Of a stretch of 64,000 bases of DNA, positions 4,577-15,812 are shown piece by piece (positions within the stretch are counted from its first letter, which is position 1; each line of letters starts with the position of its first letter). Below the pieces are notes generated by a model. The model searched no databases and was not told the DNA's origin. It saw nothing but the letters and a program-made list of their open reading frames with translations. Position numbers and translations under genes: made by a program. The DNA lies in the NCBI GenBank assembly GCA_963813195.1, contig CAWEYC010000039.1, positions 51,579-115,578 of the forward strand, in the 5' to 3' direction. The DNA is from an uncultured Alphaproteobacteria bacterium (GTDB taxonomy: Bacteria; Pseudomonadota; Alphaproteobacteria; Rhizobiales; Beijerinckiaceae).

Positions 4577-5806
4577 ATGGCGGAGGATGTAGCGGAACTC
4601 GAGACGAGACCCGACGAGCCGACGCGGAAGCCGGAGCCAGACCCGACGCCGGCGCGCAAGAACGACGATCAGGCCCACCAGAAGGATGGAGAGTCGAGTA
4701 AGGTCGAGCCGCCGGAAGCCGATAAGCTTCCCCCGGCTTTGCCGGGGTGGCCCTTTGTTCTGGTCGGACTCGTCGTGGCGATCTTCGTCGCAGTGGTCTT
4801 GTACATCATTTTCCGACCACGCCCAGACGTAGAGACCGACGATGCTTATGTGATGGTCCATTACGCGACGATCGCGCCGCGCATCGCCGGCCAAATCGCT
4901 ACAGCGCCTGTCGACGACAACGACGTCGTCAAGACAGGACAAGTTCTCGCAACGCTGGACCCGCGCGACAACGAAACCGCCTTGGCATCCGCCGAGGCGG
5001 CGGTCGCGCGCGACAGATCGCAACTCGATGAGATCTCTGCGACCGTGTCGCGCCAACCCTCGCTCATTGAAGAGCAGAACGCGGCCGTTGCGTCGGCACG
5101 CGCCAAGCTCGCTTTCGTTGAGGCCGACGCGCGTCGATACAGCAATCTCGCTGCCACGGGAGCCGCCACGGTGCAGGAACACCAGCACGCCGACGCCGCG
5201 CTTCGACAGGGTCAAGATTCGTTGGATAGCGCTGTGGCTTCCCTCGATGCGGCGCGTCGGCAACTTGACGCGCTCAAGGCCCAGAGATCCGCGGCGGAGG
5301 CGGCGGTCAAGGGCGATGAGGCTCAACTTGAACAGGCCAAGCTCAATCTTTCCTACACACAGATTCGCGCGCCGATCGACGGCGTCGTGGGCGAACGGTC
5401 GGTACAAGTCGGCAACTACGTCGGCCCCGGCACGACTTTGATGACTGTCGTGCCGCTCGACCAAGTCTATATCGAAGCGAACTATCGCGAAGTGGATCTG
5501 CTGCACATCCGCGGCGGCCAGCCCGCGACCATCCATGTAGACGCCTATGACATCGACCTCAAAGGGATAGTGGATGGCGTGCCGCCGGCCTCCGGCGCCA
5601 CATTTGCTCCCATCGCGCCCAACAACGCCACTGGCAATTTCACGAAGATCGTGCAACGACTACCGGTCAAGATTGTGGTGACGCCCGGGCAACCTTTGGC
5701 TAAGCTCCTGCGCGTGGGTTTGTCAGTCGAGACCACCATCCATACAGGACTGGAGGATGTCGTGGACGAACAGCGCAGATCAAGCGATCGCGTGACCGGG
5801 CGCTGA
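4577..5806 (+). CDS. HlyD/EmrA-family membrane fusion protein
   Basis: TDDAYV, IAPRIAGQI, IRAPIDGVV and NATGNFTKIVQRLPVKI motifs. ATG 4577 follows a GGAG RBS. Confidence 0.93.
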   Translation: MAEDVAELETRPDEPTRKPEPDPTPARKNDDQAHQKDGESSKVEPPEADKLPPALPGWPFVLVGLVVAIFVAVVLYIIFRPRPDVETDDAYVMVHYATIAPRIAGQIATAPVDDNDVVKTGQVLATLDPRDNETALASAEAAVARDRSQLDEISATVSRQPSLIEEQNAAVASARAKLAFVEADARRYSNLAATGAATVQEHQHADAALRQGQDSLDSAVASLDAARRQLDALKAQRSAAEAAVKGDEAQLEQAKLNLSYTQIRAPIDGVVGERSVQVGNYVGPGTTLMTVVPLDQVYIEANYREVDLLHIRGGQPATIHVDAYDIDLKGIVDGVPPASGATFAPIAPNNATGNFTKIVQRLPVKIVVTPGQPLAKLLRVGLSVETTIHTGLEDVVDEQRRSSDRVTGR

Positions 5807-8965: not shown

Positions 8966-11817
8966 ATGCCCAGCGACCTTAGTCAGAATGTGCGAGGCAC
9001 AATCGAATTCGGTCCATTCCGACTGCGCTCCGCCGAACGGCAGATCGAACGATCTGGGGCGCCGGTGCGGCTCGGGGGCCGTGCCATGGATATCCTCATC
9101 GCCCTGGCCGAGCGTGCTGGCGATGTGGTCAGTCACCGCGAACTAATCGACCGGGCGTGGCCGAACCTCATAGTGGAGGAAGCCAACCTGCGGTTCCAAA
9201 TCGCCGCGCTACGCAAAACTCTTGGCGACGGTCAGGATGGCGCGCGCTACGTGATTAACGTCCCCGGGCGTGGCTATAGTCTCGTCAGCCCCACGACACG
9301 TTCCACAACTGGCGCGTCGCCGCTAAGCCTAGAAGGCGCTATCCATGGCCTTCCCTCGCTCCGCAAACGGATGGTGGGACGCGACGCTGCGGTTCAGGCC
9401 ATCGCGGCGCAACTGGCGAGCCAGCGTTTTGTAACCATCGTAGGCCCTGGCGGCATCGGCAAGACAACCGTCGCCGTTTCGATAGGCCACGCTGTCGCGG
9501 CCGACTATCGCGGGGTCTGCTTTGTCGATTTGGGGCCGCTCGCTGAACCCCGCCTCGTGCCAAGTCTGGTCGCAACAGCGCTCGGGTTCGTCGTCCAGTC
9601 CAACAACCTGATCGCCAGCCTGATCGGATTCCTGCGGGACAAGCGGATGCTTCTGATCCTGGATGGCTGCGAGCACGTGATCGAGACGGTGGCTGCCTTC
9701 GCAGAGGCGATCTACGAGCAGGCAGAGGGCATCCATATTCTCACGACAAGTCGTGAGGCGCTACGGATCGAGGGCGAGCACGTACATCGTCTGTCCTCGC
9801 TGGAATGTCCACCGATGGGCGACATGCTTGCTGCAGCTGAGTCACTCGCATTCCCCGCGGCGCAGCTCTTTTCAGATCGGCTCAGCGCAAACTCCGACGG
9901 TCTTGCGATTCGGGATTATGACGCGGCGGTCGTGGCGCGCATCTGCCGAAAACTCGACGGAATTCCTCTCGCCATCGAGTTGGCGGCGGCCCGAGTAAAC
10001 GCTCACGGAATCGAAGGGGTCGATGCAATGCTCGACAGCACGCTGAGCCTCCTGTGGCAAGGCAGGCGCACCGCCTCACCGCGCCACCAAACGCTGAACG
10101 CCGCGCTCGACTGGAGCTACGACCTGCTCGTCGAAAACGAGCGAGCCATCCTGCGGCGTCTCGCCGTATTTGCAGGTTCGTTCAGCCTCGAGGCTGTTCA
10201 GGCGCTCGCTCGAGACGGCGGCGCCGAGGCGGGAGAAATCGCCGAGGTTGTAGCGAATCTCGTCGCCAAGTCGCTGATCGAGTCCGACGCCGGGGGCGGT
10301 AGGGGCGTGCGCTACCGTTTGCTAGACACCACTCGCACTTATTTGCGCGCGAAAATGGCCGACGCTGGCGAGGCAGACGCTGTGGCTCGGCGTCATGCGG
10401 AATTCTTCTGCAAGCTCCTCGAGCGGATCAGCGCGCAGGCCCCAGCCCTTTCGGAAGCCCCAGGATTAAGTGCACTGCAGCGAGCACCTCGGCAATGTCC
10501 GCTCAGCGCTGGAATGGGGCTTTCTCAGAGCGCGGCGACGTCGTTCTTGGAGTTGCCTTGGCGGCGGCTGCGGCGCCGTTGTTCCTGGAAATGTCGCAGT
10601 TGACGGAATGCCGATACTGGACCGAAAGGGCTCTCGCAGCGCATGCAGCCTCGGGGAACATACGCAGAGAAATGGAGTTGCAAGCCTCGCTCGGGATGTC
10701 GCTGATGTTCACCGAAGGTAACAGCGCCGCCGCCCTCCACACGTTGAAGCGGGCGATGGAGTTAGCCGAGAGGCTCGGCGAACTGAGCTCGCAACTGCGG
10801 CTGATCGGCTCACTTCATCTCTTCCACACCCGCATCGCCGACTTCCGCGGCTCAGTCGGGCTAGCTGAACGCGCCCGTGATGTCGCGGTCAAGATGGGGG
10901 ATCCAACCGGGTTGGCTGTAGCCGAATGGATGTTGGGCGTGTCTCATCACTTGGCTGGAGATCAATCGAACGCCCTCATCCATTGTTGGAGTGCGATCGC
11001 ACGCCCCGCCATCTCCATGCATCCCGATGTCATGCGTTTTGGATTCGATCATCGTGTACGTGCGCTTTGCGCCTTGACCCGGGCGCAGTGGTTGCGCGGT
11101 CATGCAGACGAAGCAGCGGACACGGCGCGCTATACCGTTCGCGAGGCCGAGGCTCACGCACATCAAGTAACCTTGTGCATCTCGTTGATCTACACGATGT
11201 TCGTGTTTCTCTGGAGAGGTGACTGGTCAGAGGCTGAAGCGAACGTTGAGCGATTGATCTCGGAAACGGAGAGACACTCGCTCCACCCATACCACGCGGT
11301 GGCCCTGGGTCTCAGAGGCGAACTCGCCGTGCGGCGAGGCGACGCGGCAGCGGCGATTCCGTTGTTGCTGGGCTGCCTGCAAGCCTTGCGTTCCGAGCGA
11401 CACGAAGTCCTGACGGCAGTATTCACAAGCGACCTGGCTGAGGCCATGGCGATGACCGGAAGGCTCGACGAGGCGTTGGTGACAATGGACGCGGCAGTGT
11501 CTGAAGTTGAAGGCAGGGGTGGCTCATTCGCTCTGCCGGAAATGTTGCGTCTCAAAGGCGATCTCTTGCTCAAAGGGGAGTCCGCGAAGGCAGTTGAGGC
11601 GGAGAACTGTTTTCGTCGATCGCTCGAACTCGCGCGCCGGCAAGGCGCTTTGGGTTGGGAGGTACGCAGCGCCACCTCGATGGCCCGGCTTCGGGCTAGC
11701 CAGGGCCGCCGTGCGGAAGCCCGCGAAGAGCTTGCCTCGGTATTTGGAAGGTTTGCCCAAGGCAAAGAGACGGTTGACCTCCGCGCAGCGGGCAAACTCC
11801 TCAAGGCGCTCGGCTGA
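8966..11817 (+). pseudogene. OmpR-type wHTH + P-loop ATPase + TPR transcriptional regulator, two frameshifts near 10470-10520
   Basis: wHTH (NLRFQIAALRKTLG...NVPGRGY), Walker A GPGGIGKT, LDGIPLAIELAA. The conserved EHLGNVRSALEW sits in a second frame and the TPR tail in a third. Confidence 0.8.
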
Positions 11818-11895
11818 ATCCGGAGACGTCGGCGAACTCACTGGCGCCGTCGCCGGGAAATCGTGTGGCCACCCCCGGCTTGCAAGGGCGTTCAC

Positions 11896-11929
11896 ACAGA
11901 GTCTTACAGAAACGTGCACTCTTACAGAA
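11896..11929 (+). promoter_or_regulatory. Direct repeats TCTTACAGAA upstream of catalase (candidate operator)
   Basis: Exact 10-mer at 11902 and 11920, plus a partial ACAGA at 11896, about 130 bp before the katA ATG. Confidence 0.45.
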
Positions 11930-12058
11930 CCTTGCAACGTTTCGCATGCCGGTCAGCTCACTCGGGTTCAGAGTGGCTGAGGCCGGCACGGCGCCCTTTC
12001 GGTAGCCGCGTTCGGCCTGTCTGCGTCCACTCAGCGGCGCCCATTCAAGGACTGTCCT

Positions 12059-13528
12059 ATGACCGACAAACGTCAGTACCTGACCCATGCGACGGGAGCG
12101 CCCGTCATCGACAATCTGAACATCCAGACGGCCGGCCGGCGGGGCCCCGCGCTGCTCCAGGACATCTGGCTGATCGAGAAGCTGGCCCACTTCGACCGCG
12201 AGGTCATCCCGGAGCGTCGCATGCACGCCAAGGGCGCCGGCGCTCACGGGACCTTCACCGTCACGCACGACATTTCTCGCTACACAAAGGCCAAGATCTT
12301 TTCCGAGATCGGGAAACAGACCCCAATGATCGCCCGCTTCTCGACGGTGGCCGGCGAGCGCGGCGCCGCGGACGCGGAGCGCGACATTCGCGGCTTCGCG
12401 CTGAAGTTCTACACCGAGGAGGGCAACTGGGACGTCGTCGGCAACAATACGCCGGTGTTCTTCTTCCGCGACCCGCTGCGCTTTCCGGACCTGAACCATG
12501 CGATCAAGCGCGACCCGCGCACCGGCATGCGCAGCGCCGACAACAACTGGGACTTCTGGACCCTGTTGCCGGAGGCTTTGCACCAAGTCACGATCATCAT
12601 GAGCGATCGGGGCATCCCGCGCAGCTTTCGTCACATGCACGGCTTCGGCAGCCATACTTACAGCTTCATCAACGCCGCCAACGAGCGGACCTGGGTGAAA
12701 TTCCACTTCCGGACCCAGCAGGGCATCCAGAACCTGACGGACGCTGAGGCGGAAGCCCTGGTCGGAAAGGATCGCGAGACGCACCAGCGCGACCTCTACG
12801 AGAGCATCGAGCGCGGCGATTTTCCACGCTGGACCCTCTTCATACAAGTGATGACCGATGCACAGGCAAAGGCGTTCCCGTTCAACCCATTCGATCTGAC
12901 CAAGGTCTGGCCGAAAGGCGATTTCCCACTCATCGAGGTCGGATACTTCGAGCTGAACCGGAACTCGGAGAACTTTTTCGCGGAGATTGAACAGGTCGCA
13001 TTCTCGCCTGCTAACATCGTGCCGGGAATCAGCTTCTCGCCCGACAAAGTGTTGCATGGGCGCCTTTTCTCCTACGGAGACGCGCAACGCTACCGACTGG
13101 GCGTCAACTTCAACCACATTCCCGTCAACGCGCCGAAGTGCCCGTTCCAAAGCTACCACCGTGACGGGGCTATGCGTACGGATGGAAATCTGGGCCGCAC
13201 GCCGACCTACTTCCCGAACAGCTTAGGCGAGTGGACGGATCAGCCGGAACTCGAGGAGCCGCCGCTGGAGATCGAGGGCTCGGCCGCGCATTGGGATCAC
13301 CGTGTCGATGACGATCACTATCAGCAGCCGGGCGATCTGTTCCGAAAGATGAATTCGGCCCAGCGGCAGGCGCTGTTCGACAATACGGCTCGCGCGGTTG
13401 GCGGGGCCGCCCTACCTATCCAGAAGCGTCACATTGCGAACTGCGCGAAGGCCGATCCCGACTACGGCGCCGGCGTCGCGAAGGCGCTGGGCGTCAGTTT
13501 CAAACAACCGTCGATCGCCGCTGAGTAG
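12059..13528 (+). CDS. katA: Monofunctional heme catalase (small subunit)
   Basis: [15 protein letters not shown] active-site signature and RLFSYGDAQ proximal heme-ligand signature, 489 aa. Confidence 0.97.
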
Positions 13529-13652
13529 CGGGCGCCCGCTTTGCCGGCCGGCGGCCGCCCTTCCCCAGCCGTCGGCCACTCCAAACCAACGTATTGCTCC
13601 TTCGCGCAAACCTGATCGCGCTGCCCGATCAGCCTCATTTCCGGAGTCAACG

Positions 13653-14384
13653 ATGTCCAATCAGATCGCACCCAAGCTCCTCGCGGAGTTCATCGGCACC
13701 TTCGCCTTCGTTTTCATCGGCGCCGGCGCCGCGGCCGTAGTCGGCGACAGCGTCGGCTTGCCCGGCATCACCGCGATCGCCTTCGCCCATGGCTTGACCA
13801 TCATGGTATTTGCCTTCGCCTATGGCGCTGTGTCGGGGGGCCATATGAACCCTGCGGTTACTGTCGGCGTCCTCGCCGCTGGCGCGATGCGCGCCGATGA
13901 GGCTGCCGGCTATATCATTAGCCAGCTCCTTGGCGGTGTCGTCGGGGCGTTCTTCCTGTCCGCCATGCTCGGCGGCGCCCATACCGGCCTCGGCACTCCT
14001 GCTCTCGCGCACAACCTCGCTCTGGGCGCCTCCACACTCACGATCGCGCCTAGCATCGGATTTCTTATTGAGGCCGTACTGGCCTTTTTTCTCGTCACAG
14101 TCGTCCTCAGCACCGCCGTCGCGGGACGCGCCGGTAACCTCGCGCCATTGGCGATCGGAATGACGCTGACCCTCAACATCATCATGGGCGGCGCGCTCAC
14201 GGGCGCGGCGTTCAACCCGGCGCGGGCGCTTGGCCCGATGGTCGCGACCGGAAACTTCACCAATGTCTGGCTGTACATGGCAGCCCCCATCGTGGGCGCC
14301 ATCGTCGCCGCCGTCCTCCATACGAGCCTCGTCCGTTTGGCCCATGAGCCGACGGCGGCGGCCGCCTCCGCCCCGGCGGAGTAA
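13653..14384 (+). CDS. MIP-family aquaporin
   Basis: Two NPA motifs (SGGHMNPAVT, AFNPARALGP) and six hydrophobic helices. GGAG RBS before ATG 13653. Confidence 0.95.
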   Translation: MSNQIAPKLLAEFIGTFAFVFIGAGAAAVVGDSVGLPGITAIAFAHGLTIMVFAFAYGAVSGGHMNPAVTVGVLAAGAMRADEAAGYIISQLLGGVVGAFFLSAMLGGAHTGLGTPALAHNLALGASTLTIAPSIGFLIEAVLAFFLVTVVLSTAVAGRAGNLAPLAIGMTLTLNIIMGGALTGAAFNPARALGPMVATGNFTNVWLYMAAPIVGAIVAAVLHTSLVRLAHEPTAAAASAPAE

Positions 14385-14559
14385 ACCCTTCGCGTGGGGG
14401 CCGCGCAGGTTTTACAAATACGATCCGGGCGGGTCCGTCCGAATCGCCTGCGCGGCCCTACGTTGCGCTAGCTCCCGAAAGATCTCGTCGGTCCGACCCT
14501 CGACGCGCGCTCTGGACCCGGCGCCTTTGGAGCGTCGAGGATCGTCGGGCCCGGACGTC

Positions 14560-15812
14560 CAGGGCAACGAGTCCAGGTTAACGGGGCGTGATCTGTAGCA
14601 TTTCGGTGAGGTAGTCCGGGCTCCAGGAAGCGACTTTGCGGCGTCGCTTGATGGCGCGCTTGTCCTTGGCCTGTCGGACGAGATTGAAAGCGAAGTGGCG
14701 CACGACGGCCATGTTGTGAGCGCCGTGGCCGATCCTGAGACGCGAGAGGTCCTCTTTGAAGGTGACGTCGAGCACCCAATGAACGCGGTTCTCGATGCCC
14801 CAATGGCTCCGCGCCGCATCGGCGAAAGCCTCGGCCGAGAGAGGGCGCGAGGAGATGTAGTAGCGCCGCTGGAGGCTGACATTGTCTCTTTTCTCGATCT
14901 GGGTTTCGATCATGCCGATGACGGCCAGCTTCGGAAAGCGCCTTGCGCCGGGAAAGGCGCGGTCCGAACCCAGCCAGTCGACCGATCTTGAGACCTTGTG
15001 CGTGCAAATCTCCAGGCGGCCATGGGCTTTGTCGAGGCTCTGGGCAATTCCTGCTCGGGCGCGTCGGCGAAATAGCTTTCGGCCTCGGCCCTCAGCGTCG
15101 GCTGGTTCTCCTTGACCGGCAGGAGATAGTCGGCGCCCGCCGCGACGATCGCTTCGGCGATGGCGGGATTGCAGGCGATGGCGTCGATCGAGACGAGCGC
15201 GCCGTCAAGCTCCAATTGATCGAGCAGCTCGGGGATGACGACGATCTCGTTCTCCTTCTCGTCCACCGCCTCCTGGGCCAGAACCAGGCGGGCATTGGTG
15301 GCGTAGGCCGAGACAAGATGAAGCGGTCCCTTGCCGATCTTCTTGTTATGGCTGCGCCGGGAGGTCTTGCCGTCAATCGCCACCAACTCCGGACGGCCCG
15401 GCCAGCAATCGGCGACCCAGGCCCGGAAAGCGCCCGAAAAGACCTGAGGATCGATCCGGTTCATCAGCGAGCGCAGCCAGTCGGCGCAGGGAATGCCGAA
15501 GTGGTAATCGGAAACGCCGCGTAGGAACTTCAGGTTCGCCTCGCCCCAGTCGACGATGTCGTCGCAGTTGGCGATCGTGGCGCAGACCGTCAAGAACAGC
15601 ACCTCCCGCAGCGGGTAGGCGACGCGCCACGGCTCGCGCACATCCTCGATCGCCGCGAAATGCTCCAAAAGCAGCGCCAGACGCGGCTTGGGCAGATTCC
15701 AATCGTCCATGAGGCCCTCCCGAATCAAACCGATCCGAGAGAATCACCGCCGCACAATCAGCAAAAGCCCACCTCAACCCATAATCGGCGTTAACCCGAG
15801 TTCGGAGCCCTG
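14560..15812 (-). mobile_element. ISAs1-family insertion sequence, decayed
   Basis: 24-bp imperfect terminal IRs CAGGGCAACGAGTCCAGGTTAACG / CAGGGCTCCGAACTCGGGTTAACG. Flanks ccggacgtc / gcggatgtc match 7 of 9 (old TSD). Length 1253 bp. Confidence 0.9.
14578..15710 (-). pseudogene. ISAs1 transposase, frameshifted near 15040
   Basis: IDGKTSRRS, NEIVVIPELL, IDAIACN, HWGIENRVHWVLDVTFKED motifs split over two frames. HGRLE is out of frame. Confidence 0.9.

Follow-up and report, generated by a model that had tools for sequence, protein, structure and literature searches.

Among eukaryotic channels of the major intrinsic protein (MIP) family, the TIP1 members of the plant tonoplast intrinsic proteins (TIPs) are reported to conduct hydrogen peroxide (H2O2) and TIP2;1 conducts ammonia, while mammalian AQP8, with a His/Ile/Gly/Arg filter, is both a peroxiporin and an ammonia channel. 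In bacteria, peroxiporins have, to our knowledge, been described to date only in streptococci that lack catalase, in which they serve as an exit for peroxide. Co-transcription of a catalase gene with a second gene is also familiar, as in katB-ankB of Pseudomonas aeruginosa, where the partner encodes an ankyrin-repeat protein and not a channel. It is a long-standing question whether lipid membranes restrict the rate at which bacteria clear H2O2 from their surroundings and whether channels are made to lift this restriction; membrane permeability reportedly limits whole-cell H2O2 scavenging in Escherichia coli (work by Seaver and Imlay in 2001 is said to have shown this), and TIP1 and AQP8 are said to have been found to conduct H2O2 by Bienert and colleagues in 2007. 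According to PMC6912568, which cites Tong et al. 2019, the bacterial MIP So-AqpA conducts H2O2 in both directions. Here we analyse a 64,000-nt stretch of DNA (the window) from an uncultured alphaproteobacterium of the family Beijerinckiaceae (order Rhizobiales; GenBank assembly GCA_963813195.1, contig CAWEYC010000039.1, positions 51,579 to 115,578), in which a catalase gene is followed by a gene for an aquaporin-family channel, and describe the recurrence of this pair in other soil bacteria.

An intact catalase gene and an intact channel gene

The catalase gene (positions 12059 to 13528 of the window, plus strand) encodes a monofunctional small-subunit haem catalase of 489 aa. Its open reading frame (ORF) is intact and matches Pfam Catalase (PF00199) at 1.6e-190 and 633.6 bits over 382 of the 383 profile positions, as well as Catalase-rel (PF06628), and the distal His/Asn and proximal Tyr catalytic motifs that characterize monofunctional haem catalases are present. 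The channel gene (13653 to 14384, plus strand) encodes a 243-aa MIP/aquaporin-family protein whose PF00230 match (2.8e-48) spans profile positions 8-222 of 222, which places it in the MIP superfamily, and both NPA boxes are intact (HMNPAV and FNPAR). The mechanically called ORF (13398-14384) opens inside the catalase gene; the true start is the ATG at 13653, as supported by a GGAG 7 nt upstream, which all 19 aligned loci share without change, and by the homologues, every one of which begins with MSNQ or MSNR. A previous reading of this DNA, made from the sequence only, had described a catalase gene followed 124 bp later by a co-oriented aquaporin gene. Indeed, both ORFs are intact and the gap is exactly 124 nt.

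The catalase domain begins at residue 9, which leaves no space for a signal peptide, and the enzyme is predicted to be cytoplasmic. Since it lacks a signal peptide, external H2O2 would have to cross the inner membrane to reach it. It is the sole monofunctional catalase of its genome, where the search gave one further catalase-related match, which is weak. The same genome carries two katG genes (G000:C38:7464-10673 and G000:C29:171253-174463), each with a divergent OxyR-like gene. Given these two katG/oxyR-like loci, the catalase-channel pair would represent a third, accessory H2O2-scavenging locus.

The catalase-channel pair recurs in soil Alphaproteobacteria

A scan of one genome per species across 185,579 species yielded 58 loci, 46 of them with a MIP at least 63% identical to that of the window, and 43 of these have a flank that can be judged. 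A co-oriented catalase gene adjoins the MIP gene at 37 of the 43 informative orthologue loci (MIP identity 63-87%), a count that takes in catalases truncated where a contig ends and three copies that are degraded or displaced (L011, L020 and L053). The adjacency that the sequence-only reading had noticed thus extends beyond this genome. Its carriers, which are soil bacteria, belong to Bradyrhizobium, Mesorhizobium, Xanthobacteraceae/Pseudolabrys, Methylobacteriaceae, Devosia and Roseiarcus, together with a few metagenome-assembled genomes (MAGs) labelled otherwise. The pair is also present on a 538-kb Bradyrhizobium plasmid, where the genes are annotated 'catalase' and 'aquaporin', and on two further Bradyrhizobium chromosomes (L067/L068), and the pair is common in soil metagenomes (over 120 protein clusters at 90% identity). 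On L067/L068, the oxyR-catalase-channel cluster is separated by about 4 kb from genes for a dihaem cytochrome c peroxidase/MauG-family protein and a flavin mononucleotide (FMN) reductase (L067/L068:10965-12431), and together they make up a small neighbourhood for peroxide handling. Three MIPs that are 67-87% identical to the alphaproteobacterial ones occur in MAGs labelled Steroidobacteraceae, Acidimicrobiales and Nitrolancea (L042, L045 and L046); these copies may reflect either recent horizontal transfer or binning contamination.

The arrangement of the pair varies. The catalase gene precedes the MIP gene in about 20 loci, with spacers of 101-122 nt, and the reverse order also occurs, with spacers of 109-185 nt. 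One MIP clade is partnered by four deeply separated catalase lineages, and the MIPs partnered with catalase lineages A and B are intermixed in the tree. A constrained tree with the lineage-A-linked MIPs monophyletic was rejected (approximately unbiased (AU) test, p = 0.004; the group was named after a quick MIP tree had been seen). The four catalase lineages and the rejected monophyly suggest that the catalase-MIP partnership outlasted partner exchange or recombination. Bradyrhizobium valentinum LmjM3 holds two pairs (L010 and L017) whose catalases are 81% and 62% identical to that of the window and belong to different deep lineages and whose MIPs are sisters, which suggests either duplication with partner exchange or gene conversion. 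Clustering of the flanking ORFs of all 58 loci further showed that the catalase is the sole constant neighbour of the channel and that the flanks vary from locus to locus; genes for HD-domain proteins, aminotransferases, AraC regulators, Mo-oxidoreductases and Zn-dehydrogenases recur in subsets of the loci only.

MIPs outside this clade were inspected as controls. The window's own order, sampled with 300 genomes, gave about 130 other MIP genes (at most 44% identity), none of them adjacent to a catalase gene; about 50 of these genomes also hold a catalase, and the nearest MIP-catalase pair on the same contig, by comparison of the listed coordinates, is about 57 kb apart. Metagenomic MIPs at 30-56% identity gave 80 loci, none with a catalase, and the closest outlier, P0132 (57% identity), lies on a 6.4-kb contig without one. 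The neighbours of the nearest non-linked relatives in the scan (L041, L044, L047 and L055) give no hint of a substrate. The loci L049-L054 and L057 represent an actinobacterial MIP clade with a Thr/Ile/Gly/Arg filter and SPV or NPV instead of NPA in the second box, and share a conserved neighbour set of their own (clusters c14, c27, c29, c31 and c32).

The channel carries a TIP-like filter and shows no sign of TIP descent

HMMER alignments to AtTIP2;1 (5i32) and AqpZ gave His46, Ile176, Ala185 and Arg191 as the filter of the window channel, in agreement with the His/Ile/Ala/Arg that had been called by manual alignment. His46 aligns with the H2 His of AtTIP2;1 and with a Phe of AqpZ, Ile176 with the TIP Ile and the AqpZ His, and Ala185 with the TIP Gly and the AqpZ Thr, while Arg191 is the conserved filter Arg. 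In TIP2;1 a loop-C His extends the filter, and His120 in loop C of the window channel aligns with it. Searched against PDB as a single sequence, the channel matches AtTIP2;1 best (107 bits, AqpZ 100 bits), whereas a profile of the channel clade scores 216 bits with AqpZ and 173 bits with TIP2;1. The name 'TIP-like' given in the sequence-only reading therefore holds for the pore filter and fails as a statement on descent, the scores giving no membership of the TIP subfamily. Nor is the protein an AqpZ equivalog, because it scores 125.3 bits against NCBIfam NF003838, which has a cut-off of 256.

An AlphaFold (AF2) model of the channel built from a 29-row alignment has the canonical aquaporin fold (predicted local distance difference test score (pLDDT) 85.6, predicted template-modelling score (pTM) 0.84). 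Foldseek found many aquaporins at a template-modelling score of about 0.8, and since such comparison with PDB cannot tell TIP, AqpZ, AQP0 and AQP1 apart, the fold yields no subfamily assignment. The clade is marked by an insertion in loop C that the model folds into a small beta-hairpin, by Asn175 beside the Ile of the filter and by Phe187 ahead of the second NPA box. The genome of the window holds a separate AqpZ-like gene on contig 3 and a third MIP-like match (G000:C27:325437-326075) consisting of two partial stretches within a 522-aa open frame, which may be a fused or degenerate MIP.

Throughout the catalase-linked clade, His, Ile and Ala are kept at the filter, as is Arg except in one subclade and one Devosia sequence. 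In L028-L032, L039, L046 and L053 and, independently, in Devosia L023:231-968, the filter Arg is replaced by Ile or Met (NPAIS/NPAMS), so that it has been lost at least twice among catalase-linked MIPs, giving His/Ile/Ala/Ile. The MIP gene lies at about 5001-5738 in most of these loci, and Asn or Asp stands two residues before the second box. The filter Arg is nearly universal in aquaporins and its loss is rare, the filter of plant TIP1 being His/Ile/Ala/Val. The Arg-to-Ile/Met members may thus mirror the TIP1-type filter by convergence.

The spacer and the likely transcript

The 124-nt spacer (13529 to 13652, plus strand) contains a GC hairpin without a U tract directly after the catalase stop codon (13546-13577), then a second conserved block, and then the GGAG ribosome-binding site. 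Alignment of 19-21 loci showed that the stem CCGGCGGC...GCCGYCGG and the GGAG are kept across catalase lineages A and B. Neither a sigma-70-like promoter nor a terminator-like site was found in the 124-nt gap. A long GC-rich hairpin (14398 to 14458, plus strand), likewise without a U tract, follows 14 nt after the channel stop codon; its region (14370-14480) has a minimum free energy of -53.7 kcal/mol and z = -2.4 versus shuffles, and the transcript may end there. Catalase and channel are probably encoded on a single transcript, a predicted operon with an intercistronic hairpin.

Regulators and flanking genes

Upstream of the catalase gene, two overlapping ORFs on the plus strand (8966-10603 and 10495-11817) together encode an AfsR/SARP-like regulator with an OmpR-type winged helix, NB-ARC and TPR regions (Pfam Trans_reg_C, NB-ARC, TPR_12 and TPR_MalT; NCBIfam AfsR-like and TOMM kinase/cyclase TPR). 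The ORFs overlap by 109 nt in different frames and probably represent one frameshifted gene or an assembly error. Such a regulator is unusual in an alphaproteobacterium-like genome. The sequence-only reading had considered it the pair's own upstream regulator, a claim that finds no support: the gene is split, the flanking-ORF clusters place it beside no other copy of the pair, and the regulators adjacent to the pair vary, being OxyR-like LysR-type transcriptional regulators (LTTRs) in some Bradyrhizobium and AraC in others, with none in many loci. A tandem direct repeat of two TCTTACAGAA copies with an 18-nt period (11902 to 11936, plus strand) lies 123-157 nt upstream of the catalase start and is flanked by CTTGCAA at 11879 and 11931. 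The two copies are the only matches to TCTTACAGAA in the window, and as 15 of 100 shuffles also yield two, this is weak alone; the repeat could be an operator and is a candidate site for a winged-helix regulator.

A divergent OxyR-like LTTR gene with the Cys-N8-Cys arrangement (Cys203/Cys212) lies upstream of the catalase gene in L001 (Bradyrhizobium sp. URHD0069) and in L067/L068, and a weaker OxyR-like homologue is present at L035. At least some members of the clade would thereby be linked to peroxide sensing. The EcfG-type general-stress promoter GGAAC-N15-18-CGTT was found upstream of none of 31 loci.

Directly downstream of the pair is a truncated ISAs1-family transposase gene (14910 to 15728, minus strand) that matches NF033564 at 6.5e-64 over positions 1-217 of 314 as well as Pfam DDE_Tnp_1 and DDE_Tnp_1_assoc. 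Between the channel gene and the transposase gene are two ORFs without annotation (14412-14882 and 14468-15007). In G178, a genome of the same family, a catalase of 60% identity occurs, but the MIP is lacking and synteny with the window is absent, which shows that the pair is not vertically shared within the family, and the MIP clade was found in none of the 300 sampled genomes of the order. Owing to these two observations and to the truncated transposase gene, the pair was probably acquired horizontally in the window genome.

A candidate peroxide channel for a cytoplasmic catalase

As the channel is kept beside whichever catalase lineage is present, across rearrangements, a shared substrate is the best explanation of the pairing, and we regard it as very probable that the two genes belong together functionally and are selected jointly. 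With regard to what the channel does, we lean towards a peroxide channel that feeds or relieves the catalase. In the mechanism that we propose, the inner-membrane channel with its wide, TIP/AQP8-like constriction would lower the membrane barrier to H2O2, so that external peroxide would quickly reach the cytoplasmic catalase and internally made peroxide could equilibrate outward. The cell would become a much faster H2O2 sink than the lipid bilayer alone allows, and the conserved intergenic hairpin would set or tune the ratio of catalase to channel expression. A more specific version, in which the channel is a dedicated bacterial peroxiporin of an 'import-and-destroy' system that removes the diffusion limit on the catalase and makes its carriers H2O2 sinks at the level of the community, is offered tentatively. 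That the genes are co-transcribed, that H2O2 is what permeates and that its net flux is inward are inferences here.

Several observations weigh against the favoured reading. The MIP occurs without a catalase at six informative loci (L016, L019, L025, L034, L036 and L041), and three others have the degraded or displaced catalases mentioned above. In the window no OxyR gene adjoins the pair, the two OxyR-like genes of the genome being those beside the katG genes. The spacer hairpin is no more stable than expected from shuffles (z = -0.24) and shows covariation at one of 11 pairs, and the conservation of the spacer appears to lie in its sequence and not demonstrably in its structure. The TIP2;1-type filter with its loop-C His is best known for ammonia. 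Moreover, among full-length 50%-cluster representatives the nearest 108 include 65 with a His/Ile/Ala(Gly)/Arg filter, which 32 of the 80 metagenomic relatives also have; none of them is linked to a catalase. Because the filter is this common in uncharacterised MIPs without a catalase link, it is not diagnostic; by itself, a His/Ile/Ala/Arg filter does not predict a peroxide role. Taken together with the catalase-free controls, these counts indicate that the catalase linkage is specific to one alphaproteobacterial MIP clade and that the filter is not. Furthermore, a higher influx of H2O2 could harm a single cell, and the benefit must then be large or accrue to the community.

Regulation rather than substrate might link the two genes, if the channel were an ordinary water channel expressed together with a stress catalase in stationary phase or under desiccation or osmotic stress. 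Such an arrangement would suit soil bacteria subject to drying, the clade profile does match AqpZ best (216 bits), and catalase operons with desiccation-protection partners exist, such as dtpC-katE in Acinetobacter (PMC13232832). However, AqpZ-type MIPs of the same order are never found near catalases and the genome of the window has its separate AqpZ-like gene; the filter lacks the Phe/His pair of the water-selective AqpZ; and what is found upstream is an OxyR-type regulator at some loci and an EcfG-type promoter at none of the 31. We therefore consider a water channel unlikely. It is likewise improbable that the physiological substrate of the channel is a different small molecule, such as ammonia, urea or formaldehyde, and that the catalase is a safeguard against H2O2 leaking through the wide pore. 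Filters of the TIP2;1/AQP8 type do conduct ammonia, His120 in loop C aligns with the TIP2;1 His, and subsets of the loci adjoin genes for an aminotransferase, a xanthine-dehydrogenase-family protein, a sulfite-oxidase-like protein or a Zn-dependent dehydrogenase, but these metabolic neighbours are not conserved across the clade, in which the catalase is the sole constant partner, and other MIPs with a His/Ile/Ala/Arg filter manage without a catalase. Moreover, this explanation still requires that H2O2 permeates the channel.

The catalase produces O2, and the channel might vent this gas from the cytoplasm during a peroxide burst. An O2-conducting bacterial MIP is known (Pn-AqpC; PMC8406300), and the constriction is more hydrophobic in the Arg-to-Ile/Met subclade. 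Nevertheless, O2 passes bilayers freely, nothing in the pair is specific to a gas, and the O2 porin is a member of the aquaglyceroporin branch whose filter differs, reading Tyr/Val/Pro/Arg (PMC8406300), which makes a gas vent very unlikely. Least credible of all is neutral hitch-hiking, in which the genes would travel together on a mobile segment without a functional tie. The pair is indeed scattered and scarce, being carried by about 45 of the 185,579 species representatives and by none of the 300 genomes of the window's order, an insertion sequence (IS) fragment lies beside it, one copy is on a plasmid, and near-identical copies are found in MAGs labelled as other phyla. Hitch-hiking would, however, keep the flanks and one arrangement, whereas we observed two gene orders, four catalase lineages, incongruent trees and a spacer that is conserved despite differing flanks.

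The peroxide channel that feeds or relieves a catalase is thus the reading that we retain. Full-text literature searches returned no description of a catalase-aquaporin operon, consistent with the remark in the sequence-only reading that no such bacterial module was known to it. Overall, the observation made there is confirmed and its interpretation partly supported: the pairing is real and conserved, lies within known protein families and appears to be hitherto undescribed, and the proposed mechanism is plausible, specific and unproven. A catalase-channel unit would offer a directly testable case of a logic opposite to that of the streptococcal peroxiporins, and the natural series of filter variants (Arg versus Ile/Met; loop-C His versus Gln) would be useful for finding out what makes an aquaporin conduct H2O2. 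Given its abundance in soil metagenomes, the pair could also influence how peroxide is turned over and how cells are cross-protected in communities of the soil and the rhizosphere, legume symbionts among them.

Comparison with known systems

Among bacterial relatives of solved structure, E. coli AqpZ comes closest to the channel by profile; it has the same fold and NPA boxes but a Phe/His/Thr/Arg filter in contrast to the His/Ile/Ala/Arg of the window channel. In terms of the filter, the channel resembles the plant TIPs (AtTIP2;1, 5I32; TIP1;1/TIP1;2), with which it shares His/Ile/Ala-or-Gly/Arg and, in TIP2;1, the loop-C His that aligns with His120. Unlike the TIPs, which are not known to be paired with a catalase gene, the channel is a bacterial, inner-membrane protein, and there is no sign of shared descent. 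With respect to gene organization, dtpC-katE of Acinetobacter baumannii (PMC13232832) is similar in that a catalase gene is co-transcribed with a second gene of peroxide defence, but the partner there is a dimetal oxidase-like protein rather than a membrane channel. So-AqpA (PMC6912568) and Aagp of Streptococcus suis (PMC10461500) are both bacterial MIPs with demonstrated H2O2 passage and with ties to peroxide stress and to peroxide-responsive regulators. They are water-type channels without a His/Ile/Ala/Arg filter as far as these sources report, and they are not encoded with a catalase. In contrast to the pair described here, they function in catalase-negative Gram-positive bacteria and mainly carry self-made H2O2 outward.

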